A DNA stretch of 64,000 nt from Pseudomonadota bacterium (GCA_022563685.1 JADFMY010000001.1:10707-74706), one strand, 5' to 3'. Shown: positions 37,997 to 54,445, numbered from the stretch's first letter. Notes: generated by a model from the sequence alone, not told the origin. Translations and numbers: made by a program.

Positions 37997-39079
37997 TCAG
38001 GCCGCACTCTGGTTGGTCGTTGGCTTCGGGTCGAGCGCACCGCTGGCATAGCACCTTGCCATCTCGGCAACGCTGATCGGTGTGATTTTTGAAGCCTTTC
38101 CCGCGCTTTCAAACTGTTCGAAGCGATCACGACAAAGTTTCTGCATGGCATCCCGTGCCGGCGCCAGGAATTTACGCGGGTCAAACTGTAATTTATCCTG
38201 TTGCGCAATTTTTCTGAACTCGCCGGTCATCGCCAGTCGACAATCGGTATCGATATTAACTTTGCGAACTCCGTGTTTGATTCCGCGCACAATCTCCTCA
38301 ACTGGTACTCCATAGGTTTGTGGCATTTCGCCACCAAACTCATTGAAAATATCCTGCAGCTCCTGTGGTACCGACGACGAGCCATGCATAACAAGATGTA
38401 CTTCAGGGAGTTTTGCATTGATTTTCCGCACTACATCCATCGCGAGAATATCGCCATCGGGTTTACGGCTAAACTTATATGCTCCATGCGACGTGCCCAT
38501 TGCAATTGCGAGCGCATCAACCTTTGTTTTGGTCACAAAATCGACCGCTTGATCCGGGTCGGTGAGTAATTGATCCATGCTTAAACTGCCTTCAAATCCA
38601 TGCCCGTCTTCTTTTTCGCCTTCGCCGGTTTCAAGCGAACCGAGACATCCAAGTTCGCCTTCGACCGAAACACCGATATCGTGTGCAATGCGTGTAACTT
38701 CGGAAGTAATATCGAGGTTGTATTCATAACTTGCAGGGGTTTTGGCGTCAGCTTCGAGCGATCCATCCATCATTACTGAGGTAAAGCTTGCCTGCATGGC
38801 AGAAACGCAGGTCGCCCGGTTATTTCCATGATCCTGGTGCAGGCAAATTGGAATTTGTGGATACATTTCTTCCGCGGCTTCGACCATTTTGCGGATCATG
38901 ATATCGCCCGCATAACCTCGCGCGCCGCGACTGGCTTGTAAAATGACAGGCGCATCCACAGCTTTAGCCGCTTCCATGATCGCCAGTACCTGTTCCATAT
39001 TGTTAATATTAAAAGCCGGTACTCCGTATCCGTATTCGGCTGCATTGTCGAGCAATTGCCGTAGTGTAATTCGTGCCAT
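37997..39079 (-). CDS. cbbA: class II fructose/sedoheptulose-bisphosphate aldolase, Calvin-cycle subtype
   Basis: [50 protein letters not shown] at 39079. Confidence 0.9.
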
Positions 39080-39212
39080 TTTTATAGTCCTCCTATACTC
39101 CAAAGCCAACAAGCAAATCCATCGCGTTCACCATTTCATGTGGTTCTTGTTTCTCTATTTGATTTGATTCCATTGGGGTATTCACGGTGAACTCCGATAT
39201 AAATAATTCTCT

Positions 39213-40088
39213 CTAACCAGCACGTCGCTTACGTTCTACCAACTGCATAACTAATGGGGTAAAAACCAGTTGCATCGCCAGATCAAACTTGCCGCCGGGA
39301 ATCACAATGGTATTAGGTCGCGACATAAAACTGTTGTGAATCATGCTTAGCAAATAGGGAAAATCGATTCCCTTTGGATCGGCGAAACGTATTACTACCA
39401 TCGATTCATCGGCTGTCGGAATCCACCGGGCTATAAACGGATTTGACGTATCTACAATCGGTACGCGCTGAAAATTGACATCGGTATTGGTAAATTGAGG
39501 ACAGATATACCTGATATAATCAGGCATTCGTCGAAGTATGGTGTCGGTTACTGCCTCCGGCGAGTAACCACGCACCAACTTGTCTCGGTGAATTTTTTGA
39601 ATCCATTCAAGATTTGTTACTGGAACCACACCAACCTTCAGATCTGCATACTGGGCTACGTTTGCCTGCTCAGTGTTTATTGCACCGTGCAATCCTTCGT
39701 AAAACAATAAATCGGTACCTTCCGGAAAATCTTCCCAATCGGTGAAGTTCCCAGGTTCAACTCCGTATATTTTTGCTTCATCCTCATCATGGGCATAATG
39801 CCGTGTTCTACCGGTACCCGTCTCGCCATACTGTTTAAATACACCCTCAAGTTCTGAAAATAGATTTGCCTCCGGACCGAAATGACTGAAATTTCTATCC
39901 CCTGTTTTTTCGGCACTATCCATGGCATTTTTCATTTGCTTTCGGTTATAACGATGAAAGGCGTCACCTTCGATATAACAGGCGTACACATTTTCACGCA
40001 TATAAATATGTTCAAAGGTATCTTTGACTGTCGATGTGCCCGCGCCTGACGAACCTGTTATTGAGATGACTGGATGCTTCCTGGACAT
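39213..40088 (-). CDS. prk: phosphoribulokinase
   Basis: MSRKHPVISITGSSGAGTSTV P-loop, 291 aa, in the cbb cluster. Confidence 0.9.
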   Translation of the reverse strand: MSRKHPVISITGSSGAGTSTVKDTFEHIYMRENVYACYIEGDAFHRYNRKQMKNAMDSAEKTGDRNFSHFGPEANLFSELEGVFKQYGETGTGRTRHYAHDEDEAKIYGVEPGNFTDWEDFPEGTDLLFYEGLHGAINTEQANVAQYADLKVGVVPVTNLEWIQKIHRDKLVRGYSPEAVTDTILRRMPDYIRYICPQFTNTDVNFQRVPIVDTSNPFIARWIPTADESMVVIRFADPKGIDFPYLLSMIHNSFMSRPNTIVIPGGKFDLAMQLVFTPLVMQLVERKRRAG

Positions 40089-40095
40089 ACTACTT

Positions 40096-41127
40096 CTAGC
40101 GCCTTAGCAAACTAGGATTTTGAAAAAGAGGAAACCGGGTGTTGGCGGTAAAGTCACCAGAGATATAATCCATAACCTCGGCAACCTTATCTCGCGAACC
40201 AAATATCAATGGAATTCGCTCATGAAGCGAGGTCACCTCAATATCCAGGATTATTTGATTCCCGTCCGAAGCCGCCCCACCCGCTTGCTCAACTATAAAA
40301 GCAAGGGGTAACGCATCGTAAAGCAATCGAAACCTGCCTTTCTCAAACCCTGTCCTGGAGTCGCCTGGATAAAGAAAAACGCCACCCCAAACAAGAATAC
40401 GGTATGCCTCCGCCACCAGGGACGCGTTCCAACGCATTCTGTAGTTCACGCCCAGAGGTCCATCTTCTCCAGATATGCAATCGTCAATAAAATATCTAAT
40501 CGAACTATCCCAGAACCGATAATTCAAAGTGTTTATTGCAAGCTCTCTTTGAGCAGTAGGGATCCTGATATTTTCACTGACCAGCAAGAATTCGGAACCA
40601 ACATGCTCAAGAGTGAAAGTGTGTGTACCCTTACCACAGGTAAGAACCAGTGAGGTTTGAGGGCCATAAACCAGGAATCCTGCAGCTACCTGTCGTTCAC
40701 CAATACTCCCTTCGAAAACCCGGCCTGAATCAAATCTAAGTATCGAAAATATAGTCCCTATTGACATATTAGATTCAATATTTGTTGAGCTATCGAGCGG
40801 GTTAATCGCAACCGCGAGTGTGCCTTTAGGATTTAGTGGAACAGCCTCTGATTTTTCTGCGGATGCCAGGTAAGCAACGGGCGCATTGTATAATGCTTCC
40901 TCAAACACATTGTTAGCCACGATATTTAAAGGCTTTTGAGTATCGCCATCTGGGTTTTGCGCCCCAGCGGCTTCATCATACCTGGCCAAACTATGGCGAG
41001 AAATTAATTTAGACAAATTAATCCCTGCTTCCGCAATACTCGTTATGGTAGAACACAGGTCTCTGCTTGAGGTGTCATCGCCCACCCGCGACAGTAAAAA
41101 TTGATTAAGAGTACTTCTGGCACTCAT
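40096..41127 (-). CDS. cbbF: class 1 fructose-1,6-/sedoheptulose-1,7-bisphosphatase
   Basis: NPLDSSTNIESN (metal site DPLDGSSN-like), GPQTSLVLT, GVFLYPGD, LLYDALPLAFIVEQAGG. ATG at 41127. Confidence 0.85.
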   Translation of the reverse strand: MSARSTLNQFLLSRVGDDTSSRDLCSTITSIAEAGINLSKLISRHSLARYDEAAGAQNPDGDTQKPLNIVANNVFEEALYNAPVAYLASAEKSEAVPLNPKGTLAVAINPLDSSTNIESNMSIGTIFSILRFDSGRVFEGSIGERQVAAGFLVYGPQTSLVLTCGKGTHTFTLEHVGSEFLLVSENIRIPTAQRELAINTLNYRFWDSSIRYFIDDCISGEDGPLGVNYRMRWNASLVAEAYRILVWGGVFLYPGDSRTGFEKGRFRLLYDALPLAFIVEQAGGAASDGNQIILDIEVTSLHERIPLIFGSRDKVAEVMDYISGDFTANTRFPLFQNPSLLRR

Positions 41128-41185
41128 GCAAACCTCCCCCACTCGGCCTTTATCGATGTAACGAAATACTGTCACACTTGATTTT

Positions 41186-41198
41186 TAAGTAAAGTTAA
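41186..41198. promoter_or_regulatory. TNA-N7-TNA LysR/CbbR-type box in the cbbR-cbbF divergent region
   Basis: TAAGTAAAGTTAA. The context is AT-rich, so a chance match is quite possible. Confidence 0.2.
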
Positions 41199-41213
41199 AA
41201 TATCTTAAGACGA

Positions 41214-42146
41214 ATGAAAGAAAAACTTTACCCCTGGGCAAGGCAATTAACACTCAAGCAACTGCGTGGATTTCATGCCGTTGTTGGGGCTGGCAGTATT
41301 TCAGGCGCAGCCAGGAAGCTGCATTTGACCCCACCCGCTGTATCGCTGCAAATCCGAGGTCTCGAAAATGCGACAGGAATTCCTCTACTCGAACGTAGCG
41401 AAATCGGTTTGGTTCCCACGCTTGGGGGAGCAGCCCTGTACACACTTGCCGTTAACATGCACTCTGTACTTTATGAGTTCGCCGAAACATTGGACGAACT
41501 GAAAGGCGTGGATCACGGTATTGTCTCTGTCGGCGTGGTGAGCACGGCACGCTATTTCGCACCAACAGTACTCGCTGAATTCAATAAGCTTTACCCCGAG
41601 GTTAAATTGCAATTATCGGTAGGCAACCGTGAAATCATTGTGAATAAACTGGGGAATCTCGAACTGGACATTGCCATTACCGGGCTCCCTCCTGATAATT
41701 TTGAGGTTGAAAGCGAGTACATCGGTAAACACCCTCAAATAATCATCGCACCACCCGATCATGAGTATTCGACAAGCACTCAAATCTCACTCGTAAGCTT
41801 AAAAGATCAAACTTTTCTGCTACGCGAACCTGGTTCGGGAACACGCTCGGTTGCAGACAAGTTGTTTAAAAACGCCAGATTCATGCCTGCATCTGGAATT
41901 GAATTCGGTAGCAACGAAACGATTAAACAGGCTGTTATGGCCGGTATGGGCATTGCGTTAATCTCTGCCCATACGGTTGCAGCCGAATTAAAAGATAAGC
42001 GACTAGTCGCACTTGATGTTAAAGGTCTGCCCATCAACCGGAAATGGTTTGTCGTTAAAAACCAGAAAAAACGTTTTTTGCCATCGGCACAAGCGCTGTG
42101 GAATTTTATTGCTCGCAGTGGTAAACGTTATTTACCAAAGCCATGA
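41214..42146 (+). CDS. cbbR: LysR-family transcriptional regulator CbbR
   Basis: N-terminal HTH (LTLKQLRGFHAVVGAGSISGAARKLHLTPPAVSLQIRGLE). Divergent from the cbb operon. Confidence 0.85.
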   Translation: MKEKLYPWARQLTLKQLRGFHAVVGAGSISGAARKLHLTPPAVSLQIRGLENATGIPLLERSEIGLVPTLGGAALYTLAVNMHSVLYEFAETLDELKGVDHGIVSVGVVSTARYFAPTVLAEFNKLYPEVKLQLSVGNREIIVNKLGNLELDIAITGLPPDNFEVESEYIGKHPQIIIAPPDHEYSTSTQISLVSLKDQTFLLREPGSGTRSVADKLFKNARFMPASGIEFGSNETIKQAVMAGMGIALISAHTVAAELKDKRLVALDVKGLPINRKWFVVKNQKKRFLPSAQALWNFIARSGKRYLPKP

Positions 42147-43086: not shown

Positions 43087-43752
43087 TCACCGTTCAAACT
43101 CCATATAATTCCTGGTCAATTCAGCCATAGACCGGTAAAAGGGTAGGTCAGCCTGCTCCATGACCACATCACAGAATTGGGGTAGCCAGCATAATAGATG
43201 CTTGTCAAGAAACATGCGTTGTATAGACGAGCTATACTCTGCGCTTTTTCGATCCTGTTGAGTCCACTTTTCAGCTTCCCATGCTGTCAGCTTCTGCATA
43301 AATTCAAGCTCAACGCTGATGTGATCCGGAATCCCGGTGAACTCAGGTTGATAGTCAAGACCTGCTGTTTCGATAAAGTTTTTCACTTCAACGGTCGTTC
43401 TTCCCCATAGGCTACTCGTATCACCATCCATTTCGGCAAAGATAGACTCATGGGCCGATATATGATGGCCAGGACCGATAAACAGTCGAGTAAACTCCAG
43501 TCCCAGGGCTTCCGCCGTCGCAGTTTCAGGGCTGCTATAAAATGCTTCTCCCAGCTCCACACCCATGTCTGAGAAGATCCCCGACAAGCGGGGACCCCTC
43601 AGTTCCTTGATGAGAGCTTCGGTGGGCTCTTCCCGGAAAACAGTGGCCAATAACCCATAAATGTTACTTCTTAGTTGGGCGTTGTCGGCCGCTTTTTTCC
43701 AGTCGGTTTCCACTTCAGATCTCCCGTTAGCTTTCATTTTAGGCTTTGGCAA
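43087..43752 (-). CDS. TorD/DmsD-family redox enzyme maturation chaperone
   Basis: RSNIYGLLATVFREEPTEALIKEL ... EFTRLFIGPG ... HESIF pattern. Overlaps the stop of the Mo subunit gene. Confidence 0.8.
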   Translation of the reverse strand: MPKPKMKANGRSEVETDWKKAADNAQLRSNIYGLLATVFREEPTEALIKELRGPRLSGIFSDMGVELGEAFYSSPETATAEALGLEFTRLFIGPGHHISAHESIFAEMDGDTSSLWGRTTVEVKNFIETAGLDYQPEFTGIPDHISVELEFMQKLTAWEAEKWTQQDRKSAEYSSSIQRMFLDKHLLCWLPQFCDVVMEQADLPFYRSMAELTRNYMEFER

Positions 43753-46261
43753 CTCTTACCACCGTATCCATCCATCGTTGCCCACCACTGATCGGATCCG
43801 AACTGTTCGGAATGATCGAGTTGGGATGGGTGCCATATTTATCCCACCACTTGTTTTTAGCATCCGGGTCCGTTGAGGCGCCCCCGGCAATGGGAGAACT
43901 CTTACCCGATCCGTAGATACCAGAATACTGGCGCCCAAAGTGGTGCGAGATGGCGATGATGCCAGGGATGATGCCTTCGGTTACATGAGCGGTGGTGGTT
44001 ATCGAACCGAGAGCGCTCGATACCTTGATGCGATCACCATCCTTGATGTTACGCGCGGCAGCGGTCTTGCTGTTGATCCATGCCGGGTTATCGTGCTTGA
44101 TCTCGGACAGCCACTTGCAGTGGGCTGTACGCGAATGCGTATGTACCGCAACCTTGTAGGTAGTCAGGTGTAACTCATCCTTAGCCATCTTCTGATGCTC
44201 GGGTATCGGCGTGTAGGTCGGTAGTGCCGGGAATCCCTTGGACGCGAAGTTGTCGGAGTAAAAGTCGAGCAATCCGGACTTGAGGAACGAAGTGTTCGGC
44301 GGATAAGCCTTACGCGCCGTTCCGTTGATATCCTGGGCGACATAGGCATTCTTGGCGCCATCGACTCCCAGATAACCCTTGCTCCTGGCATCAGCCTTGC
44401 TGACTCCGGCCTTCTTGTAGTTCCAGTAGACGCCGGTTTCTTTATCGAGGATAACGCCGTCGCCGGAAACATCCGCTTTGGCCTCGTAGAAGCCGAAGTT
44501 AGGTTTGGCATTCTTATCGTGCCAGACCCCATATTTCTTCATGTACTCGAAGCCACCTGCTTCCTTGACACCAGGCGTCATATTGCATGACTGGCGGACA
44601 TAGTCTTCCTTGGTCTTATAGGCCAGTTTAAATCCGAGGCGCTTTGCCAGACCGTAAAAGATTTCACCCTGATCCCTGGATTCACCCAGTGGTTTGATCA
44701 AGGGTTGCCGGATGGTGTACTCGCCGACGCCGGTTGGCGACACCATATCATCGGTATCCCAGCGTTCCAGGTAGGTAACATCAGGCAGGATGAGGTCTGC
44801 ATATTGTGATGTTTCATCATAGACAATATTAGATGAAACGGAGAATGGAATGAGTTTCTCATCTTTTAAAATAGCTTCCGCTTCCTTGTTGTTGCCATTG
44901 ATAAAGGCCATGTTGTTACAGCTCGACCAGTAGACCTTGGGTCGACCATTTCGGCCGTCCTTGATCATTGGCAGATTTTGCTGGCTTACCTGATGTGTAG
45001 GAAACGCGGCTTCACCGGGGAAACCGTGGGTGATGTCGAGACCTTTTTGTATCTTGGCTTTCGGAGAATGGGGCGCTTTCCAGCCGGCACCGACACCCAT
45101 GACCCGACCGCCCTTTCTATCAAGGTTGTTAGTGATGGCCGACAACAACATCGCCGCACGTTCCTGGTCCGCGCCGTGATAGTGCATGACGGTGCCACGA
45201 TAGGTAATCAGGCAGGCCGATTTTGCCCTGGCGTAACCACGTGCGATCATCCTGATCTTATCGGCTGGAACATCGCTTTCTTTTTCGGCAAACTCGGGCG
45301 TGTACATGGCCACATGTTTCTTGATGGCAGCGATTTTCTCATCGTCCGAGGCGTGATAACTTGGCGTCACACGCATATATTTGAGGTGATCTTTGCGGAA
45401 CAGCCCTTCATTCATGATAACGTTAATCATGGACAACATCACCAGACCGTCCTTGCCCACCTTAATCGGAACCCACTCGGTTGACTTCGCGGCGGTGTTG
45501 GAAAGGCGCACGTCGAAGGTATAAAGTGGAACGCCACGATCCACCATTGCCCGGATTAGACGCTGCGATGTGGGGATGTGATTGGTGTGGGTTTCGAACT
45601 GATTTGAGCCGAAATTAACCACGTAATCGGTATTATCGTAGTCCCAGTTATCGTACATCCCACCCCATAAACTTTCCTGCCCGACCCATTTTGGTCCCTC
45701 ACATACCGATGTGTGCGTACCGATCGTTTTGGAGCCAAAGGCGTCCATAAAATCGTGCATAATCGAGGACTGGCTACCCTTGTGCCGTCCGTACTGGTAC
45801 ATAAACAACTCGGGTGTTCCAGCGTCACGTAGCGGCTTGAGTTTGGATGCCAGGAGGTCCAGGGCATCGTCCCAGGAAATTCTCTTCCATTTATGTTCCC
45901 CGCGCTTGCCGACGCGCTGCATCGGGTACAGCAGACGATCCGGGAAGTAAACCTGGTTTACACCGGCCTGCCCCTTGGCGCAGAACTTACCGAGGGTACG
46001 GATAGATTTCGGGTGCCCCTCCAGTTTTACCAGGCGTCCGTCTTCGACAAAGCCTATCATCGAGTCACGAGTTACGCACTGCCAACAGGTAGAGGGTATA
46101 GCCTTACGTTCCTTCTTCGTGATCGGAGAAAAATCGCGACCACCCTCCTGCATTTTTATTGACCCAGCCAGTGCGTTCTGATTAACACCCACCCCAGCGA
46201 CTATAGCAGTGCCGCTAGCTGCGGCAAGTTTTACAAAATTACGACGATTCATTTTTTTCAT
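43739..46261 (-). CDS. Tat-exported molybdopterin oxidoreductase catalytic subunit of the Psr/Phs/Arr-like branch, substrate unknown
   Basis: Tat signal NRRNFVKLAAASG. The FS0 region CWQCVTRD...GKFCAKGQAG resembles Thermus PsrA CEMCFWRCG...GRLCARGNAG. A probable Cys Mo ligand lies in GTHTSVCEGPKW. 840 aa. Confidence 0.8.
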   Translation of the reverse strand: MKKMNRRNFVKLAAASGTAIVAGVGVNQNALAGSIKMQEGGRDFSPITKKERKAIPSTCWQCVTRDSMIGFVEDGRLVKLEGHPKSIRTLGKFCAKGQAGVNQVYFPDRLLYPMQRVGKRGEHKWKRISWDDALDLLASKLKPLRDAGTPELFMYQYGRHKGSQSSIMHDFMDAFGSKTIGTHTSVCEGPKWVGQESLWGGMYDNWDYDNTDYVVNFGSNQFETHTNHIPTSQRLIRAMVDRGVPLYTFDVRLSNTAAKSTEWVPIKVGKDGLVMLSMINVIMNEGLFRKDHLKYMRVTPSYHASDDEKIAAIKKHVAMYTPEFAEKESDVPADKIRMIARGYARAKSACLITYRGTVMHYHGADQERAAMLLSAITNNLDRKGGRVMGVGAGWKAPHSPKAKIQKGLDITHGFPGEAAFPTHQVSQQNLPMIKDGRNGRPKVYWSSCNNMAFINGNNKEAEAILKDEKLIPFSVSSNIVYDETSQYADLILPDVTYLERWDTDDMVSPTGVGEYTIRQPLIKPLGESRDQGEIFYGLAKRLGFKLAYKTKEDYVRQSCNMTPGVKEAGGFEYMKKYGVWHDKNAKPNFGFYEAKADVSGDGVILDKETGVYWNYKKAGVSKADARSKGYLGVDGAKNAYVAQDINGTARKAYPPNTSFLKSGLLDFYSDNFASKGFPALPTYTPIPEHQKMAKDELHLTTYKVAVHTHSRTAHCKWLSEIKHDNPAWINSKTAAARNIKDGDRIKVSSALGSITTTAHVTEGIIPGIIAISHHFGRQYSGIYGSGKSSPIAGGASTDPDAKNKWWDKYGTHPNSIIPNSSDPISGGQRWMDTVVRVAKA

Positions 46262-46293
46262 GTCAATTCCTCTCTTTTACATGCTGTCAGGGT

Positions 46294-47154
46294 TTATATG
46301 ATTTGATCCACAAAGTGGTCAAGTTTGCCCTTCTTCCGCTTCGTATAGAGGGTCTTCAGTAAATTATCCGGATCGATATAGAACACATGCGGGTTGGTAT
46401 CCTCTTCTGGAAGTAGCACATTGGTACTTGCGGTACCCGTGGTCAGATTGTGTTCTTTAACAAGCTTCGAGACTTCACTGTTCGGGTCGTTTAGATCTCC
46501 GAAAATTCGGGCTCGCCCCTGGCAGGTATTGACACAGGATGGCTCAACACCGTTGTCGATACGATGAACGCACATATCGCATTTATCTACCGCCTGTTCG
46601 GCCGGATCAGCCCCCGCTTTAACAAAGGGATCGAACGAACGCACACCATAGGGGCAGGCATCTATACATTTTCCACAGCCGATACACAGGTCTTTGTCGA
46701 TCAGGATCAAGCCGTCCGGTCGTTTGAAGGTAGCACCGCCACGGTAACGTATGGTCTTACCATCGGCAGTTTTATACTTGAGACGTGCTCCCGGGAATTC
46801 AGGGCACTCTTTAACACAGGGAGGAATACCATCCTCTTTGTTGCCTTCGCAGTGATTACACATCAAGGGCAAAAACACCTTCTTGGTGTTCGGGAAAGTC
46901 CCCATAGTTACCTCTTGAATAACCGCCCTGAATCGGCCAAGAGACACGTTGTTTTCGGATTTACAGGCCACAGTACAGGCTCTGCAACCGATACATCGCC
47001 TGAGGTCCATCACCATCGCCCAGCGAGGTGCTTTCGCTTGCGCCGCCTGAAGATTCGCTCCGGGTGTCGCCAGTGCTGCCGTGCCTACGGCCGCTGTTCC
47101 GACGCCTCCCAAAAATTTACGCCGACTGATTTGTGGTTTTTTCTGGTCACTCAT
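46294..47154 (-). CDS. Tat-exported four-cluster [4Fe-4S] ferredoxin subunit
   Basis: Tat signal SRRKFLGGVG. Cys groups are CIGCRACTVAC, CNHCEG...CVKECP, CIGCGKCIDACP and CDMC...CVNTC. Confidence 0.85.
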   Translation of the reverse strand: MSDQKKPQISRRKFLGGVGTAAVGTAALATPGANLQAAQAKAPRWAMVMDLRRCIGCRACTVACKSENNVSLGRFRAVIQEVTMGTFPNTKKVFLPLMCNHCEGNKEDGIPPCVKECPEFPGARLKYKTADGKTIRYRGGATFKRPDGLILIDKDLCIGCGKCIDACPYGVRSFDPFVKAGADPAEQAVDKCDMCVHRIDNGVEPSCVNTCQGRARIFGDLNDPNSEVSKLVKEHNLTTGTASTNVLLPEEDTNPHVFYIDPDNLLKTLYTKRKKGKLDHFVDQII

Positions 47155-47216
47155 TTTTTTCTCTCCTGTTCATCTTCTTTAACCTTTACAGTTGTTGATT
47201 GGTTAGATCTGTCTCT

Positions 47217-48731
47217 TTAGTCAGTTATTCTTGCTGCTTCGAGCAGGTCGATAGTGTCTTCGAACTTGCCGAATGCCCCATCGAGAATAGTGATCGCATA
47301 CTTCTTGTTATGTACGCCATTACCCACTCGCACAATATCGAGTAGCTCAACGCCCTCTGCGATCATCGCATCTGCCTGGCTTAGTTGCTCCTCATTCAGG
47401 CTGTTCTTTAATTCAACCAGGAGCTCACGCACTTCTGCCTCGACTTCTTCTGCGTCTGAAACCTCATCCTCAAGCGTTTTTTTCCACTTACTGAGCATTT
47501 TTATGTGCTGCTCTGTATGGCATGCAGCACAGGTATCACCCGATGCGGTGCGCACATCATGCCCCCTGCTCACAGTCTTTTTGAGATGACAACCCATGCA
47601 GTTGGTGTTGACTTCATACATCAGGTGGGGGGCACCTGAGATTTCTTCATTAACTGGAATACCTGCGAGCAACAGTTTCTGGTATTTATGCTGATCGACA
47701 TGGCAGAGCTGGCAATCTTCGCGCACAAAATCGAGATGATCGGTTCGGTTCCGGTGTTCGATTACACTATGACAATCAAAGCAGTCAGCCTTGTCAGGCA
47801 CATGCTTGTCATGCATGAGATCTCGGTCACCTGCGGTTGCCAGAAGCGTCTGGCTCCGGTTATGGCATGTCAGGCATCCGTTAGAGACAACATTTCCGGT
47901 ATCAACCTCCCCGCCACCTTTCACCACTTCAAAGTGGCAGCCCTCACAGGCAACCCCTGCTTCCTGCATCGTCTGATGCGTAATTGGGTCCTTGGTTAAG
48001 CGCTCATCGCCTGCCTTAAACTGGCTTTGTAACGACTCGGTTGGAATCGTGTGGCAGACATCACAACGGGATAACCCCTGGTTGAAATCTATAGTGGGTC
48101 TTTCGGCAAAGGTGATTTTCCTAATATCTCCATCGTTCATTACTGCCTTGTCAAGCGTAGGTTTTTGCAGCTTTAAATGACACAGGAAACAGATGTCTTC
48201 AGGCACCTCGAAATGTTTGTCTTCGGTGACCTTGAAATGACAGGTATCACAGGTAATTTGGTATCCGTCCAGGGCTTTATCGCCAAAGTGGACCTCGTGT
48301 TTGAAGCGCACCTTTTCTGTGAACTGTATCTCCATCGGCGCCAGCTTGTCGCGGTTGTGGCAGCCGGATCGCAGGCAGGAGCCGTCCTTTATGACCGGTC
48401 GAATGGGTAGTGGTGCTTCCGGGTCATAAAGGTAGGCAGCCAGGTGGCGTAGCCCTTCGTATTTGGCTTTGAGTGAATACTTCTCACCCGGCAGAAAGTG
48501 GCAGTCTATACAGTCAGCCTGCATTCCATCCGGATTATTGTTTTTGTGGTGAAAATCGGACTTCCAGGCATCGTACTGTTCTGTCATAGTGTGACAGCTG
48601 CCACCGCAAAAAGAGGACTGCGCAGTGTAATACTCTACACCCCCCCAGCTTGCTAGCAGAAACAGAACGGCCCCCACGAAAAAGAAAGCGGCCAGCCGCC
48701 AGGTAATGATAATATTTAGTTCCTCTCCCAA
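47217..48731 (-). CDS. membrane-anchored multihaem cytochrome c (10 CxxCH plus one CX3CH and one CX4CH)
   Basis: N-terminal TM helix, then CGGSCH (CX3CH), CIDCH, CLRSGCH (CX4CH), CDTCH, CFLCH, CDVCH, CEGCH, CLTCH, CFDCH, CQLCH, CMGCH and CAACH. TTG start. Confidence 0.8.
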   Translation of the reverse strand: MGEELNIIITWRLAAFFFVGAVLFLLASWGGVEYYTAQSSFCGGSCHTMTEQYDAWKSDFHHKNNNPDGMQADCIDCHFLPGEKYSLKAKYEGLRHLAAYLYDPEAPLPIRPVIKDGSCLRSGCHNRDKLAPMEIQFTEKVRFKHEVHFGDKALDGYQITCDTCHFKVTEDKHFEVPEDICFLCHLKLQKPTLDKAVMNDGDIRKITFAERPTIDFNQGLSRCDVCHTIPTESLQSQFKAGDERLTKDPITHQTMQEAGVACEGCHFEVVKGGGEVDTGNVVSNGCLTCHNRSQTLLATAGDRDLMHDKHVPDKADCFDCHSVIEHRNRTDHLDFVREDCQLCHVDQHKYQKLLLAGIPVNEEISGAPHLMYEVNTNCMGCHLKKTVSRGHDVRTASGDTCAACHTEQHIKMLSKWKKTLEDEVSDAEEVEAEVRELLVELKNSLNEEQLSQADAMIAEGVELLDIVRVGNGVHNKKYAITILDGAFGKFEDTIDLLEAARITD

Positions 48732-48830: not shown

Positions 48831-48847
48831 AGCAAAGGTCATGCCAC
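48831..48847 (-). promoter_or_regulatory. sigma-54 (-24/-12) promoter of the multihaem/FeS/Mo operon
   Basis: The reverse complement reads GTGGCATGACCTTTGCT, i.e. TGGCAT-N5-TTGCT. It lies ~100 nt upstream of the start at 48731. Confidence 0.6.
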
Positions 48848-48908: not shown

Positions 48909-48924
48909 GTTACCCGGCGGTAAC
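48909..48924. promoter_or_regulatory. GTTACC-N4-GGTAAC palindrome, candidate bEBP upstream activating site 1
   Basis: GTTACCcggcGGTAAC, centred ~85 bp upstream of the -12 element. Confidence 0.4.
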
Positions 48925-48999: not shown

Positions 49000-49015
49000 G
49001 TTACCGATGGGTAAC
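49000..49015. promoter_or_regulatory. GTTACC-N4-GGTAAC palindrome, candidate upstream activating site 2
   Basis: GTTACCgatgGGTAAC has the same half-sites. It is 91 bp centre-to-centre from site 1 and 33 bp from the IS110 transposase stop. Confidence 0.35.
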
Positions 49016-49047: not shown

Positions 49048-50310
49048 TCAAGTTTTCACCGCAAACTTCAGTAATGGAGAGCCTCGGTCTTTAAGCGCCT
49101 GAAGATACTTTGATTCATCGTAAGGTTTACGATCTTTCCAGCATCTAAAAATGATTCTGATCCACTTGAATGCGAGTGAGCGGATAATCGTATTGTGTGG
49201 TTTTCCTTTTTGCATTTGTTGTTCGTAATAAGCCCTGGCCCAGAAGGAGTATCGAACGGTTTGCCCCGCCCATTCAACAAAGGTTTGTCGCAAGAATGTT
49301 GGACAACTGTATCGCCAGTGAGTCCAGCTCTTTTGGCCGCTTTGCTCGATCACGGGAGCGACACCACTGTATTTCTGTAGCTCGGCAGCGGCTTGATAAC
49401 GCTCACGATCGCTACCAAAAGCGACCAGTAGTCGCGGTGCGAACTGGGGTCCTGCGCCAGGCAGAGAATCGAACAGGGATCGATCTCGCATCGGTTTATA
49501 TAGACGACTGATTTCAGCATCGAGTCGTTTAATACCATCGAGCAAGTGCTTGAGTTGCGGCATGAGGACTTCGATGAGGATACGATTAGGCTTAATGATA
49601 CCCTCATCATCGGTCAGAGTGATCGCCGATTTAATCGCGTCGATACGGAGCTGATTGACCTGGAGATAGCGTGCGTTATGGGCATTGAAGAACGCCATCA
49701 AGGTTTTCTTTCGCGCCCGTTTGACTAGTACCAGTGATGGCCATTTAATGATGAAGTCACAAAAAACGTGCGTGTCTTTTTCGTTAAACCAATCAAGTAC
49801 TTGTGGATAGTAGTTCTTCAAAGTCGCGGTAATACAGTTGGTCAGATCGACGCGATCCTGTACCAGTTTACGCCGATATTCCAGTAGTTGTGCCAATGCA
49901 CGAACATCCGCTGACTCGGGCTGGATGGGTTTGAGCTTATCCATGTGTTTTTCCAGTATCTCGGTTTGCAGGTAAGCATCGCCGGGATCATCCTTTGCGC
50001 CACTTAAGGAGAAGGCTTTGCGATACCTCGCCACGGTTGCAGGATTAATCGGAAAGATGATGAGGTTGTTATATCGACTCAAGGCATAGATCAACGGCCC
50101 TTTTTTTAGTTCACACGCCACAGCAACGACCTGGCCTGGATAACGATTCTCCAATGCCGTGGCCCAGGCGTGCAGATCAGCTGGTTGACTGGAGATCACT
50201 GACCATTGGTAGTCTTTGGTTCCGATAGCTAATTCACAGATATCGTGTTTCTTATCTGCCCAGTCAATCCCGACAATGGCAGCAAAGTCATCGATAGAAA
50301 AATCTTTCAT
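49048..50310 (-). CDS. IS110-family DEDD transposase/recombinase
   Basis: N-terminal IVGIDWADKKHDICE...DDPGDAYL (DEDD_Tnp_IS110). C-terminal LDSLPGAGPQFAPRLLVAFG...YSGVAPVIEQSGQKS (Transposase_20). Confidence 0.9.
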   Translation of the reverse strand: MKDFSIDDFAAIVGIDWADKKHDICELAIGTKDYQWSVISSQPADLHAWATALENRYPGQVVAVACELKKGPLIYALSRYNNLIIFPINPATVARYRKAFSLSGAKDDPGDAYLQTEILEKHMDKLKPIQPESADVRALAQLLEYRRKLVQDRVDLTNCITATLKNYYPQVLDWFNEKDTHVFCDFIIKWPSLVLVKRARKKTLMAFFNAHNARYLQVNQLRIDAIKSAITLTDDEGIIKPNRILIEVLMPQLKHLLDGIKRLDAEISRLYKPMRDRSLFDSLPGAGPQFAPRLLVAFGSDRERYQAAAELQKYSGVAPVIEQSGQKSWTHWRYSCPTFLRQTFVEWAGQTVRYSFWARAYYEQQMQKGKPHNTIIRSLAFKWIRIIFRCWKDRKPYDESKYLQALKDRGSPLLKFAVKT

Positions 50311-50685: not shown

Positions 50686-51552
50686 GTGCGATTGATTTGT
50701 CTTTTCTTGATATTCTGGATTACTCCAGGTTTTGCGGTCAGCGCAGAGCCGCCTATCCGCTTTGGCTTAACCGCGGTGATACTGACTGACAACATCAGGT
50801 TTCTCGATAAATGGAGTCAATACCTGGAAGTTAAAATGGGTCGCAAGGTCGAATTTGTGCTCAGAAGGTCCTATCAAGAGGTAATGGATCTATTGGTCTC
50901 GGGCGCCATCGATTTTGCGTGGATCTGCGGTTATCCCTACGTGCAAACAAGAAAACCGGAATCTCTTAAGCTCATGACAGTGCCTGTTTACCGCGGGGCG
51001 CCACTTTACTTCTCTTATATCATTGTCCCTCATAATAGCCCCTACAAACGATTTAGCGATCTGAAAGGAAAGATTTTTGCCTTCTCTGATCCTGACTCGA
51101 ATTCCGGCTTCCTCTATCCACAATCCTTGTTGGCGAAGCAGGGTGCTAAACCCGAGACCTTTTTCCGTCAAACATTTTTCACCTTCAATCATGCGGAGAC
51201 GGTACAGGCTGTTTCCGAGCAGGTTGCAGATGGCGGCGCGGTAGACTCATATATATGGGAATCCCTCGCCGCTATCAAACCGGAGGTCACCGAAAAGACT
51301 CGGATAATAAAAAAATCTCCCAGTTTTGGCTTCCCGCCTATTGTTTCAGGTTTAAGGGTAGACGCTGACACGGTCAAGTTGATGAAAAGTACACTCGAGA
51401 ATATGAACCAGGATGAAAACGGCAAAGCACTCCTTGCAAAACTCAAGCTGGATGGCTTTGGTGATTATCCGGATTCGCTATTCGACGGAATCCGCGCTAA
51501 CTTAAAAGCTATCCAAAGGATTACGCCGGATGTACTCGCTGTTACCAATTGA
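50686..51552 (+). CDS. periplasmic PhnD-like (phosphonate/oxyanion) binding protein, AioX/ArxX-like by context
   Basis: Signal peptide. PIRFGLTAV...YQEVMDLLVSGAIDFAW...FSDPDSNSGFLYP is the PhnD-family pattern. Followed directly by a histidine kinase and a sigma-54 response regulator. GTG start. Confidence 0.75.
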   Translation: MRLICLFLIFWITPGFAVSAEPPIRFGLTAVILTDNIRFLDKWSQYLEVKMGRKVEFVLRRSYQEVMDLLVSGAIDFAWICGYPYVQTRKPESLKLMTVPVYRGAPLYFSYIIVPHNSPYKRFSDLKGKIFAFSDPDSNSGFLYPQSLLAKQGAKPETFFRQTFFTFNHAETVQAVSEQVADGGAVDSYIWESLAAIKPEVTEKTRIIKKSPSFGFPPIVSGLRVDADTVKLMKSTLENMNQDENGKALLAKLKLDGFGDYPDSLFDGIRANLKAIQRITPDVLAVTN

Positions 51553-51569
51553 CTAATTGCAGAGTAAAA

Positions 51570-53045
51570 ATGCCGATACTTAGCCCAAGATCCTGGCCAG
51601 TGGCGATAAAGCTATCGCTCACAATCACGGTCTTTGTGGCTTCGGTTGGATTCATGATCGGTGCGGTGATGGTGGTACAGGACTCGACCCGCTTTCACGA
51701 TGCATTGGGTGAAAAGGCTCTTCTATTGTCTGAATCCGTTGCCATCACCGCCCCCAGGGCAATGCTGCGCAAGGATTACTGGTCTCTCTATCAAAGCCTG
51801 AAGAATATAGCCGCCAGAAGAACAGGAACAGGCGGATCTCATGAAATCATCACGGCGATGATACTTGATGCGGAGGGTCTCATTCAGGCGCACCTTCAAC
51901 CCGCTGGAAATCCATTAGGTCTTATTTTTTCACCCACAGGCAAGCTTGAACAAGAACTCTTAAGGCTCGCCATGAGCGCAAGAAAGCCCATCGTGTTAAG
52001 CAGGGGTGGTTTTTCGGAAACAGGCTTCGTGGAGGGTGTTGTCCCACTCTTCTCCGATCAAAAGTATATGGGTGTGGCCCGAGTCCGGTTATCGGTAGTC
52101 CTATTATATCAAAAGGCTAAAAACTCGGCGCTCATCGTTCTTCTCCTGGTATTCTTTTTCGTCATTATCGGTAGTGCTCTGGGCACCATCGTTTCCAGGC
52201 GTATAGTCAAACCTCTCACAGCAATCACCCAGGGACTGGAAGCGGTCGGTCGAGGTGAAATGACCGATTTTGCTCCGGTACCAGTAGGGGACAGGGATGA
52301 AATCGGTCGTCTCAGCTTCACCTTCAATCAGATTATGTCGGAATTGGCGGAAAAAAAGATGCTTGAAGAGGAAATCGCGATGAGCGAAAAACTGGTTGCT
52401 CTCGGTCGCATCACGGCAGGTGTTGCGCACGAGGTTAACAACCCCCTTGCCGGGCTTCTGAACTGCATCGACACCTTGCAAAAGCATCCTAACGATCAAA
52501 AGCTGATTGATCGTTACTTACCGGTTATCGATCAAGGTCTGCACAGAATCAAGGACATCGTTCATGCCCTGCTTGTTGGGCTTAAGATTGAAGAGAGCGA
52601 TGAAAACGTAAGTATCGAACACATCGATAAACTACAGGATCTCATAACGGCGGAAATTGGGGACAGGGATATAGAAGTCATCTGGAACAACCGTGCTGAT
52701 AAAGGTCTGAATATCCCCGGCAAACTTGAACAGATCGTGTTTAATCTTCTGAAAAATGCGCTGGAGATACTTCCTGATAGCGGCAGGATTATTTTCAACA
52801 TGTATCAAAAAGGGGAATTCCTGGTCATCGAAGTCAGCGATAGCGGTCCTGGGATTCCCTCGAGTATCAGAAATCAACTGTTCGACCCTTTTTTCACCAC
52901 CAAACCCAATGGTACCGGATTAGGACTCTGGGTGGTGTATCGCCTGGTCCAGAGTATGCGGGGAATCATTGAAATAGAGAGCGAGAAGGATCAAGGCTCC
53001 ACGTTCCACGTTTCTGTACCAGTGATAAGAGCAAAGGTGGCCTGA
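51570..53045 (+). CDS. sensor histidine kinase (2 TM, HAMP, HisKA, HATPase_c), AioS-like by context
   Basis: H-box AHEVNNPLAGL, DSGPGIP, GTGLGLWV. ATG at 51570 (track TTG at 51549). Confidence 0.85.
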   Translation: MPILSPRSWPVAIKLSLTITVFVASVGFMIGAVMVVQDSTRFHDALGEKALLLSESVAITAPRAMLRKDYWSLYQSLKNIAARRTGTGGSHEIITAMILDAEGLIQAHLQPAGNPLGLIFSPTGKLEQELLRLAMSARKPIVLSRGGFSETGFVEGVVPLFSDQKYMGVARVRLSVVLLYQKAKNSALIVLLLVFFFVIIGSALGTIVSRRIVKPLTAITQGLEAVGRGEMTDFAPVPVGDRDEIGRLSFTFNQIMSELAEKKMLEEEIAMSEKLVALGRITAGVAHEVNNPLAGLLNCIDTLQKHPNDQKLIDRYLPVIDQGLHRIKDIVHALLVGLKIEESDENVSIEHIDKLQDLITAEIGDRDIEVIWNNRADKGLNIPGKLEQIVFNLLKNALEILPDSGRIIFNMYQKGEFLVIEVSDSGPGIPSSIRNQLFDPFFTTKPNGTGLGLWVVYRLVQSMRGIIEIESEKDQGSTFHVSVPVIRAKVA

Positions 53046-54445
53046 TGCAGGACAAGATGCAGCAAGGGTTAGATGATGACGATTTCAGTGACTACTGTGT
53101 GCTCCTTGTTGAAGATGATGAAATCATGCGTATGTCACTCGAAGACAGGCTGCACCTCGAGGGGATCACCGTGCGAGCCGTGTGTGACACGGCCAGTGCC
53201 AAAAAGGAGCTTAAAAAAGGAGATATCGACCTTGTGGTTAGCGATATTCGCCTGCCGGATGGCACAGGTATTGAACTGTTTTCCGATATTTCAAACTACT
53301 TCCCCGGCATCCCGGTGATCCTCATGACAGCCTACGGTGATGTATCAGATGCGGTTAAGCTGGTTAAAGCCGGCGCTCTCGATTATCTGACCAAACCTTT
53401 TGATATCAGCGACTTCATTAAGAAAGTGGAACAACATCTATCCCGTATTGCCGATACTCATCTGACATTGGGCACGGGCGATGACAACCGATTCAAACCA
53501 GGTAGCGGGCGCCTCGGTAAGAGTTCTGCAATGCGTAAGCTTGAGCGGCTGGTGGCTCGTCTTGGCAAGAGTGACAGTTCGGTATTAATCACTGGTGAAT
53601 CCGGCGTTGGTAAAGAAGTAGTCGCGATACTGCTCCACAACAACAGTCTCCGCGCCAACAAACCTATGATCAAGGTCAACTGTGCTGCCCTGTCACCGAG
53701 CTTGATTGAGAGTGAGCTCTTTGGTCACGAAAAAGGTGCTTTCACTGGTGCAATACAGCAACGCATAGGAAGATTTGAACAGGCCCAGGGGGGGACTATC
53801 TTTCTGGATGAAATCGCCGAAGTATCACCCGATATACAGGTCAAACTGCTTCGTGTGCTACAGGAGCGTGAGATCGAACGTGTCGGTGGCGTGGAGCCGA
53901 TCGCTCTCGATGTCAGGGTTATCGCCGCGACCCAGGTGAATCTCGAAGAGTCTATCGAGAAGCATGAATTTCGATCGGATCTCTATTGGCGGCTCAATGT
54001 AATTCATGTGGATATTCCGCCCTTGCGCAAGCGCCCGGAAGACATTATCTATCTTGCCAGATTGTTTGTAAGTGAACTGGCGACCAAAACCGGAAGTAAT
54101 ATTAAAGGGCTGTCAAAACAAGCCGAGTTACAGCTTCAATCCATGTCATTTCCTGGAAACGTCCGCGAACTGAAGAATATTATTGAAAGAGCAGTCGCCT
54201 TGTGTGATGCCCCCTGGATCGGCTCCAGTGATCTGCTCGCCCAGAATGACCTGTTGACCCATGACAGTAACCATCCCGATATTAATACCACGACACTGAA
54301 GCAAACGATTGAGGAAGCAGAGCGTCAGGCTATTATCAGCGCATTAGCCGAAAATTGTGGGAAAATAGCCCTGGTAGCGAATCATCTCGGTATCTCTCGT
54401 AAAAATCTTTGGGAGAAGATGAAGCGTTACGGAATCGAGAAGTAA
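53045..54445 (+). CDS. sigma-54-dependent response regulator (NtrC family), AioR-like by context
   Basis: Receiver (LLVEDDE, DLVVSDIRLPDG), GESGVGKE, GAFTGA, and a C-terminal HTH (KIALVANHLGISRKNLWEKMK). ATGA-type overlap with the kinase gene. Confidence 0.9.
   Translation: MQDKMQQGLDDDDFSDYCVLLVEDDEIMRMSLEDRLHLEGITVRAVCDTASAKKELKKGDIDLVVSDIRLPDGTGIELFSDISNYFPGIPVILMTAYGDVSDAVKLVKAGALDYLTKPFDISDFIKKVEQHLSRIADTHLTLGTGDDNRFKPGSGRLGKSSAMRKLERLVARLGKSDSSVLITGESGVGKEVVAILLHNNSLRANKPMIKVNCAALSPSLIESELFGHEKGAFTGAIQQRIGRFEQAQGGTIFLDEIAEVSPDIQVKLLRVLQEREIERVGGVEPIALDVRVIAATQVNLEESIEKHEFRSDLYWRLNVIHVDIPPLRKRPEDIIYLARLFVSELATKTGSNIKGLSKQAELQLQSMSFPGNVRELKNIIERAVALCDAPWIGSSDLLAQNDLLTHDSNHPDINTTTLKQTIEEAERQAIISALAENCGKIALVANHLGISRKNLWEKMKRYGIEK

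Follow-up and report, generated by a model that had tools for sequence, protein, structure and literature searches.

A stretch of 64,000 nucleotides (nt) from a Pseudomonadota bacterium (GCA_022563685.1 JADFMY010000001.1:10707-74706), called the window here, carries an operon for an unassigned molybdenum oxidoreductase at positions 43087–48731 of the minus strand. The listing of open reading frames (ORFs) revealed four co-directional and closely packed genes in the order cytochrome, B, A, D, all of them where an earlier sequence-only reading of this DNA had placed them. The first gene (47217–48731) encodes a membrane-anchored dodecahaem cytochrome c of 504 amino acids (aa). It is followed on the same strand by the ferredoxin-like subunit B with four [4Fe-4S] clusters (286 aa; 46294–47154), the catalytic subunit A (840 aa; 43739–46261), and the chaperone D (221 aa; 43087–43752). 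The catalytic gene runs 14 nt into the start of the chaperone gene. Subunits A and B both carry a motif for export by the twin-arginine translocation (Tat) pathway (RRNFVK and SRRKFLG, respectively).

The cytochrome has twelve haem sites. Ten are CxxCH motifs, and the other two are the variants CGGSCH (a CX3CH site; aa 42–47, nt 48591–48608) and CLRSGCH (a CX4CH site; aa 119–125); these twelve and the one transmembrane helix had been picked out in the sequence-only reading, and all were seen again. All 24 cysteines of the protein fall inside haem motifs, and the only hydrophobic segment is the N-terminal helix. A Pfam search identified the NapC/NirT N-terminal domain (PF03264; 66 bits, cutoff 24.1), followed by c3/c7-type domains, which together with the single transmembrane helix places the protein in the NapC/NirT family. 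It scores below the NCBIfam equivalog cutoffs for NrfH (56 vs 134), NapC (24 vs 349), and TorC (28 vs 455). The first haem site reads CGGSCHTM, and we take its SCHTM to be the CXXCHXM signature of NrfH haem 1. Eight further haem sites follow the NrfH/NapC/NirT-like quinol/quinone module. The twelve sites are conserved in 66 orthologues, with CX4CH present in nearly all, and the CX3CH site becomes a canonical CxxCH in the deltaproteobacterial versions only. Exactly twelve histidines outside the motifs are also conserved across these orthologues, enough for twelve bis-His haems. Because the twelve sites, CX4CH included, and the twelve histidines are conserved in 66 orthologues, the haem pattern is not a product of chance. 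The AlphaFold2 (AF2) model of the cytochrome has a mean predicted local distance difference test (pLDDT) score of 41, and the transmembrane helix and the C-terminal helices alone are confidently modelled. The C-terminal approximately 95 residues (aa ~410–503; nt 47217–47500) are free of haem sites and consist of long helices. They contain an invariant GNGVHNKKY motif, whose His474 is one of the twelve conserved non-motif histidines. This part could serve for docking or dimerisation and in addition provide a distal haem ligand.

Subunit B contains 16 cysteines arranged in four groups, as expected for the Tat-exported four-cluster ferredoxin described earlier. Its NCBIfam matches are TtrB-, DsrO- and ArrB-like, every one under the cutoff. 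The chaperone matches PF02613 with 80 bits (cutoff 22.2) and belongs to the TorD/DmsD/NarJ family, in line with the TorD-like chaperone that had been proposed; it lies under the equivalog cutoffs of both TorD and DmsD. No hydrophobic segment was found in the operon proteins except in the cytochrome, and a tblastn search with two NrfD/ArxC proteins gave no match anywhere in the window. Both results bear out the earlier remark that the operon is without an NrfD/PsrC-type integral membrane subunit.

The catalytic subunit is a member of the superfamily of enzymes with molybdenum or tungsten bound by two pyranopterin guanine dinucleotides (Mo/W-bisPGD; the DMSO reductase or MopB superfamily). The Molybdopterin (PF00384; 110 bits), Molydop_binding (PF01568; 73.5 bits), and Molybdop_Fe4S4 (PF04879; 27.8 bits) domains all score above their gathering cutoffs. 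Cys187 aligns with the cysteine ligand of molybdenum in PsrA and ArrA, and the active-site motif YGR(H)K reads YGRHKG. The resemblance to PsrA, PhsA, and ArrA that was claimed for the Cys-ligand and FS0 regions in the sequence-only reading holds for this cysteine, whereas at FS0 the third cysteine is replaced by Asp66. The FS0 motif is C59-x2-C62-x3-D66-x27-C94, with three cysteines only. Asp66 is invariant in the family of the window protein, whereas ArrA, ArxA, PsrA, and PhsA carry a cysteine at this position. An Asp-type FS0 is also present in a protein of Azoarcus sp. KH32C and in the neighbouring clades P0125 and P0132, and is not seen in clades P0121 and P0124. The motif implies an iron–sulfur (FeS) cluster that would be either an Asp-ligated 4Fe-4S or a 3Fe-4S cluster. 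In other ferredoxins, an aspartate in place of the third cysteine raises the cluster potential or yields a 3Fe cluster. Around Cys187, residues Arg159, His183, Thr184, and Lys191 are invariant or nearly so in the family. The first three align with positions of ArrA that are presumably arsenate-binding. These flanking residues would fit arsenic chemistry, although they are suggestive only. The closest sequences in the Protein Data Bank (PDB) are PsrA (2VPW; 8e-50) and ArrA (6CZ7; 8e-47). The AF2 model of the catalytic subunit has a pLDDT of 76.

In the profile search, the catalytic subunit stayed under all NCBIfam equivalog cutoffs. Its best match was PhsA (NF012032; 333 bits, cutoff 694), followed by DmsA/YnfE/F (TIGR02166; 273 bits, cutoff 777.7, with Cys and not Ser as the aligned ligand), ArrA (NF041714; 180 bits, cutoff 1600), TtrA (NF011567; 106 bits, cutoff 1750), and the AioA family arsenite_ox_L (score 23). 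Twenty representatives of neighbouring clades likewise reached no NCBIfam cutoff. As reference clusters we used the arxXSR-B2-A-B-C-D cluster beside arsABC on plasmid pORIO3 of Cereibacter azotoformans ORIO, a PhsABC operon, and DmsABC. The window protein is 24.7% identical to ArxA of ORIO, 27.6% to ArrA over 532 aa, 27% to PhsA from an E. coli plasmid, and 23.5% to DmsA. In the same kind of pairwise comparison, ArxA and ArrA share 36% identity.

Neighbouring sequences were taken from an exhaustive HMMER scan of 1.8 billion representatives, and a distance-based neighbour-joining tree of 124 sequences was calculated with 100 bootstraps. The family of the window protein is a tight clade (97% bootstrap) within a large unannotated clade that includes the KH32C protein. 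ArrA and ArxA, with two relatives, form a clade of their own with 100% support, and the Psr/Phs sequences group apart from both in a further clade. The smallest clade that unites the window and KH32C proteins excludes ArrA, ArxA, PhsA, and PsrA in 100 of 100 replicates. The catalytic subunit forms its own clade, separate from the known families; the label "unassigned" in the sequence-only reading was apt, and the phylogeny that it had called for did not put the subunit squarely within any characterised family. The subunit is not an ArxA, given the identity of 24.7%, a YGRHKG motif where ORIO has GRGWG, and a cytochrome-B-A-D gene order without B2 or C. Its 180 bits, its place outside the Arr/Arx clade, and its YGRH motif also separate it from ArrA, for which Zargar et al. 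reportedly described an (R/K)GRY motif in 2012. A PsrABC assignment fails on the missing NrfD/PsrC-type subunit, in the operon and in the window alike. Reviews and surveys name Aio, Arx, and Arr only, and in our literature searches neither this clade nor an arsenic enzyme with the order cytochrome-B-A-D turned up, although the "arsenotrophy-like" genes of a 2019 study of pelagic arsenotrophy might include this family.

Three regulatory genes, X, S, and R, are encoded on the plus strand. X (50686–51552) is a periplasmic sensor whose sequence is of the AioX/ArxX type that responds to arsenic oxyanions. S (51549–53045) is a membrane sensor histidine kinase with two transmembrane segments followed by HAMP, HisKA, and HATPase domains, and R (53045–54445) is a sigma-54-dependent response regulator with receiver, AAA+, and HTH_8 domains (Pfam, NCBIfam, and hydrophobicity). 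In the PDB search, X matched the solved AioX of Rhizobium NT-26 (6ESK) with an E value of 8e-68 (232 bits). The arsenate binder ArrX followed at 5e-37 (131 bits), and the phosphite and phosphonate binders PtxB and PhnD at approximately 1e-13 (approximately 50 bits). X and the ArxX of the ORIO cluster share 45% identity. S is 38% identical to its KH32C counterpart and 28% to ArxS; for R these values are 44% and 34% (to ArxR).

According to Badilla et al., the AioX pocket is made of Y88, C106 (which bonds arsenite), Y131, S161, S163, H192, and D210, and AioX has a hydrophobic signalling loop, V56-F57-L58 (53–61 region), whereas the ArrX loop is shorter and polar (PMC5908839). The window protein keeps all seven pocket residues, C106 included, and N162 as well. 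Its signalling loop reads V-I-L, with the isoleucine as in ArxX, and is full length and gapless when compared with AioX. ArrX aligns to X from residue 44 only and has SFSG vs SNSG in AioX, ArxX, and X. All 58 operon-linked X orthologues keep the pocket, except for S163T in a few of them and D210E in a single one. By its seven pocket residues and hydrophobic loop, X belongs to the AioX/ArxX subfamily and is a predicted arsenite binder. The sequence-only reading had seen a PhnD-like sensor and had argued from it for an oxyanion substrate; the oxyanion still stands, whereas the sensor itself is far closer to AioX/ArxX than to PhnD. With the sensor read as AioX/ArxX-type, the candidate substrate narrows from an oxyanion or sulfur compound to arsenic, and the oxidase direction, previously raised as an alternative only, is favoured.

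A perfect sigma-54 (−24/−12) promoter, TGGCATgacctTTGCT, lies at 48831–48846 on the minus strand, approximately 100 nt upstream of the start codon of the cytochrome gene, and is unique in the window. A scored search (at least 9 of 11) found a comparable element upstream of 46 of 64 orthologues vs 2 of 64 control regions; a strict pattern was too narrow and matched 18 of the 64 orthologous upstream regions. Further upstream are two copies of the palindrome GTTACC-N4-GGTAAC, the presumed binding sites of R, with the proximal copy at 48909–48924 and the distal copy, 91 bp from it, at 49000–49015. They are the sole matches in 64 kb, where 0 are expected by chance. At least one palindrome is found in most gamma- and alphaproteobacterial loci, and about half carry a pair spaced by approximately 91 bp. 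In the ORIO arx cluster, two GTTCGG-N4-CCGAAC sites precede arxB2, and the KH32C cluster has GTTACG-N4-CGTAAC and a sigma-54-like element. The sites of the three systems have a common 16-bp GTT..N6..AAC architecture and differ in their specificity bases. An AioX-subfamily binding protein, a kinase, a sigma-54 regulator, and a sigma-54 promoter are all present, as in the regulation of Arx and Aio systems by their XSR genes.

An IS110-family transposase gene (49048–50310, minus strand; PF01548 and PF02371; NF033542, 159 bits, cutoff 140), the single copy in the window, has been inserted into the intergenic region that separates the divergent X and cytochrome genes. None of 79 related loci has an insertion sequence in this region. 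The transposase ORF ends approximately 30 nt from the distal palindrome; the ends of the element cannot be defined by comparison, as the intergenic DNA of the relatives is too diverged. The promoter and both palindromes are on the operon side of the insertion, and the sensor genes are now approximately 1.4 kb further off. The control region of the operon therefore looks intact in its sequence. The IS110 gene is not part of the system.

A scan with one genome per species found 528 loci with relatives, and the neighbourhood counts given here come from the best 79 of these. The 79 loci belong to Candidatus Thiodiazotropha and Sedimenticola (many of them symbionts of lucinid clams), marine Rhodospirillales and other Alphaproteobacteria, Desulfobacterota, Nitrospirota, and Mariprofundaceae. 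Among the 78 loci with a member of the catalytic family, B adjoins it in 74 and D in 77. Of the 72 loci with room for the dodecahaem cytochrome, 67 have it. For X and R, 70 loci have room, and 57 of these have both within 10 kb; 6 of the 13 misses are at contig edges. Loci in which X and R accompany the cytochrome-B-A-D genes are found in Gamma- and Alphaproteobacteria, Desulfobacterota, and Nitrospirota. Close relatives have X-S-R and the operon in divergent orientation, separated by 550–650 bp of intergenic DNA. This is a conserved seven-gene module made of a three-component sigma-54 circuit and a four-gene enzyme operon. The co-occurrence search that the sequence-only reading had suggested thus showed the gene order to be conserved, and its idea of a cytochrome in place of an NrfD/PsrC anchor is borne out in these 67 of 72 loci.

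The loci also differ in accessory genes. In eight alphaproteobacterial loci (for example L042:6341–6976, plus strand), the chaperone gene is directly followed by a gene for a soluble dihaem cytochrome c with two domains of the cbb3-subunit-III type, a possible periplasmic electron acceptor. The window lacks a conserved protein of approximately 220 aa whose gene comes after that of the chaperone in 28 gamma- and alphaproteobacterial loci (for example L001:13316–13969, minus strand), mostly on the other strand. A probable lipoprotein signal in this protein ends in ...AC and is followed by GWWGDGE, and the protein weakly resembles DSP/PTP phosphatases (PF22741; 26 bits, just under the cutoff), seemingly without the catalytic cysteine. 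Seven loci of Desulfobacterota and Nitrospirota (L062, L064, L067, L069, L072, L074, and L079) have a second module downstream of the chaperone. It comprises one or two multihaem cytochromes of approximately 430 aa (c554/c552-like), a second FeS protein, and an NrfD-family membrane protein, and in most of these loci also a small c3-like cytochrome and a cytochrome b561-like protein. In the same loci, X is followed by a different kinase of 739 aa and an extra receiver-domain protein. A metagenome-assembled genome of Thalassospiraceae (L056) has three copies of A with 50–63% identity, one with and one without the cytochrome, around one X-S-R set, and L013 has a second A/B pair (56% and 44% identity) beside one X-S-R set. 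These paralogues suggest recent duplication and diversification within the clade.

We found no arsenic metabolism described in Thiodiazotropha in the literature. For the "DMSO-reductase-like" A3193_10195 of Ca. T. endoloripes, Petersen et al. 2016 report some of the highest expression levels of any symbiont gene or protein (PMC6872982). We considered whether it is the enzyme described here; it has 854 aa and an extra gene between A and TorD, and is probably a different enzyme.

Further genes lie downstream of the operon in the window. A gene of the nitroreductase family (PF00881; 42256–42837, minus strand) sits between the chaperone and LysR genes and is not conserved beside the operon elsewhere. 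Judged by their translations, the genes at positions 37997–42146 encode a probable class II fructose-bisphosphate aldolase, a phosphoribulokinase, a fructose-1,6-bisphosphatase, and, divergently, a CbbR-like LysR. These genes resemble a Calvin-cycle cluster and suggest an autotrophic host.

The closest relative of the module in a cultured organism is on plasmid pAZKH of Azoarcus sp. KH32C (L080; WP_015451711–WP_015451714), with identities of 39% for A, 45% for B, 46% for X, and 44% for R. The island begins with arsR-arsC-arsD-arsA-acr3, continues with R-S-X on the opposite strand, and then has B-NrfD-A-TorD. Further downstream it encodes a 368-aa ferredoxin that is a homologue of ArxB2 (28% over 359 aa, E 8e-12). 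ArxB2 is apparently specific to arx clusters (Ospino et al.). No aio or arx genes were found in the KH32C island, and its catalytic protein, with 176 bits, is not an ArrA by NCBIfam. The equivalent island of Azoarcus sp. CIB has ars together with arxXSR/arxB2ABCD; the KH32C operon holds the place that arx holds there. The KH32C and window systems share the Asp-type FS0, the order B before A, divergent XSR genes, a palindrome, and the joint clade in 100 of 100 replicates. Unlike the window, KH32C has an NrfD/PsrC anchor instead of the cytochrome, an ArxB2-like gene, and an ars island.

From these data we propose that the operon and X-S-R form a single arsenic-responsive respiratory module, in which the enzyme is most likely an arsenite oxidase in the window host, and we rate the chance that this reading is right as slightly better than even. 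We infer the arsenic substrate because the identity of the sensor, the architecture of the cis elements, and the genomic position of the sister clade agree. The oxidase direction is favoured because the sensor belongs with AioX/ArxX and not with ArrX, because soluble dihaem cytochrome c genes are present in eight alphaproteobacterial loci, because the aspartate at FS0 would be expected to raise the potential or give a 3Fe cluster, and because the host appears to be a lithoautotroph, as read from the translated Calvin-cycle genes downstream. In the proposed mechanism, periplasmic X would bind arsenite through its conserved Cys pocket and signal to the kinase S, which would phosphorylate the sigma-54 activator R. 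R would then bind the two GTTACC-N4-GGTAAC palindromes and fire the sigma-54 promoter before the cytochrome gene. The TorD-like chaperone would mature the Mo-bisPGD subunit, which, exported by Tat with the four-cluster ferredoxin, would dock on the dodecahaem cytochrome in the periplasm. In the sulfur-oxidising, CO2-fixing gammaproteobacterial host, arsenite would be converted to arsenate at the Cys-ligated Mo centre. Electrons would run from the Asp-type FS0 through the four FeS clusters and the eight distal haems to the NrfH-like tetrahaem module and on to quinone, or may alternatively pass to soluble cytochromes. In the menaquinone-based Desulfobacterota, the same enzyme may run in reverse as an arsenate reductase.

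We give about even chances to the wider proposal that the family makes up a third, hitherto unrecognised lineage of respiratory arsenic molybdoenzymes, distinct from both Aio and Arr/Arx, with an Asp-ligated or 3Fe FS0 and a dodecahaem wire, in at least 528 species-level genomes. What is new is the separate catalytic clade, the Asp-type FS0, and the dodecahaem anchor, under control of the known AioXSR type. The Arx systems of Cereibacter azotoformans ORIO (pORIO3, L081) and Alkalilimnicola ehrlichii MLHE-1 have a regulatory circuit of the same kind, with an X protein, a kinase, a sigma-54 regulator, and paired 16-bp palindromes, and share the Tat-exported Mo-bisPGD subunit with its Cys ligand, the four-cluster FeS subunit, and the TorD-like chaperone. 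They differ from the window in the catalytic subunit, which is 25% identical to the window protein, is without Asp at FS0, has GRGWG and not YGRHK, and is placed in the Arr/Arx clade. They also have ArxB2 and the NrfD-type ArxC, in the order B2-A-B-C-D, where the window has the 12-haem cytochrome and the order cytochrome-B-A-D. The AioXSR-AioBA(-cytC) systems have the nearest solved sensor, the three-component sigma-54 circuit, and, as in some loci of the present family, a soluble cytochrome c. AioA itself is on a distant branch of the superfamily and has a Rieske partner, whereas the window has no Rieske subunit. AioA carries a 3Fe-4S cluster, which the non-standard FS0 recalls, and the dihaem cytochrome c of the eight alphaproteobacterial loci recalls cytC, which follows the aio genes. 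For an operon-encoded, extended NapC/NirT cytochrome with a periplasmic Mo-bisPGD enzyme matured by TorD, the parallel is TorCAD/DorCAD, in which the cytochrome feeds the enzyme. TorA, unlike the window enzyme, has no FeS subunit, no FS0, and a Ser ligand, and TorC has 5 haems vs 12.

Several observations weigh against arsenite oxidation. The link between the enzyme and arsenic comes from sequence and genome context, and the catalytic subunit gives no decisive substrate signature. The latter is as distant from ArrA and ArxA (25–28% identity) as from PhsA (27%), and a Foldseek search with its AF2 model did not separate ArrA (1e-39) from PsrA (2.5e-39), with a TM score of 0.70 for each. The neighbour-joining tree contains no references for TtrA, SrrA, SrdA, SreA, and AnrA, and TtrA was judged by its hidden Markov model alone. 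There are no ars genes in the window, and ACR3 is found within 10 kb in just 3 of the 79 loci, a modest enrichment only. The hosts are sulfur specialists, for which a sulfur substrate would be ecologically natural. NapC/NirT-type cytochromes usually act as quinol dehydrogenases that feed reductases. Finally, pocket residues alone do not fix the specificity of the sensor for As(III) or As(V) (PMC5908839).

Some of these points would suit a respiratory arsenate reductase, an enlarged counterpart of ArrAB-CymA in which the NrfH-like module oxidises quinol and the twelve haems and four FeS clusters carry the electrons outward to As(V). The cytochrome gives matches in Pfam and NCBIfam to the NapC/NirT/NrfH modules typical of quinol dehydrogenases, and ArrAB of Shewanella depends on the NapC/NirT cytochrome CymA, and not on NrfD, for its coupling to the quinone pool. 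ArrAB of Shewanella sp. ANA-3 (6CZ7) resembles the window system in its periplasmic AB core, the Cys ligand, and the Arg, His, and Ser/Thr positions, and ArrA is the top Foldseek match by a hair's breadth. It differs in its 22–28% identity and in its RGRY motif; moreover, the operon-encoded cytochrome of the window has 12 haems vs 4, and the window sensor is of the arsenite type. ArrX-type sensors do have the same pocket residues (PMC5908839), but X is nearer to AioX than to ArrX in score, has the full-length loop, and reads SNSG. An oxidase is the better fit for the Asp-type FS0 and for the soluble cytochrome c genes linked to the operon, and the gamma- and alphaproteobacterial hosts are lithoautotrophic oxidisers. 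The operon also occurs in lineages of sulfate reducers with low-potential menaquinone, and the Desulfobacterota loci add a module of NrfD, FeS, and multihaem proteins. Overall we regard arsenate reduction as unlikely but as a serious rival, above all in the Desulfobacterota.

A reductase or oxidase for a sulfur compound such as polysulfide, thiosulfate, or tetrathionate, of the Psr/Phs/Ttr kind, would need a sensor that is re-tuned to a sulfur oxyanion or that serves only as a general redox or toxicity cue; we hold it to be improbable. The sensors TtrS and ThsS also use PhnD-fold domains, and the hosts include sulfur oxidisers and sulfate reducers. PsrABC and PhsABC (2VPW) share the A/B core and the Cys ligand with the window system, PsrA is the best PDB sequence match, and the best NCBIfam matches are PhsA for A and TtrB/DsrO for B. 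All of these matches are, however, far under the family cutoffs (below half of it for PhsA), and the window protein is excluded from the Psr/Phs clade in 100 of 100 replicates. The window also has no PsrC/PhsC, and its Arg159 is as in ArrA and ArxA where PsrA has His. The AioX-type sensor keeps the arsenite-ligating cysteine and the whole AioX pocket across four phyla, and the sister enzyme of KH32C is in an ars island with an ArxB2-like gene.

Another pnictogen or chalcogen substrate (antimonite, thioarsenate, methylarsenite, or selenite) seems equally improbable: Sb(III) should also fit a pocket built on a thiol, sulfidic sediments can be expected to contain thioarsenic species, and the catalytic subunit is in neither known arsenic clade, but nothing positive was found for any candidate, and the 45–50% identity of X to arsenite binders proven by isothermal titration calorimetry makes arsenite the parsimonious ligand.

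If the clade does act on arsenic, chemosynthetic symbioses and marine sediments would have an unnoticed electron donor in arsenite (or an unnoticed acceptor in arsenate). Both chemosynthetic clam symbionts and free-living sulfur oxidisers would have an unrecognised pathway for energy or detoxification, and surveys limited to aioA, arxA, and arrA would overlook a sizeable share of the marine arsenic cycle, spread over many taxa. The system is a natural case of a 12-haem wire derived from NapC/NirT that replaces the NrfD/PsrC anchor, and of a Mo-bisPGD enzyme with an aspartate at FS0. Its regulator, a paralogue of AioR/ArxR with the distinct operator GTTACC-N4-GGTAAC, would be useful for specificity studies and biosensors. 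Even without an arsenic substrate, this is a large, tightly conserved, and wholly uncharacterised family of respiratory enzymes.

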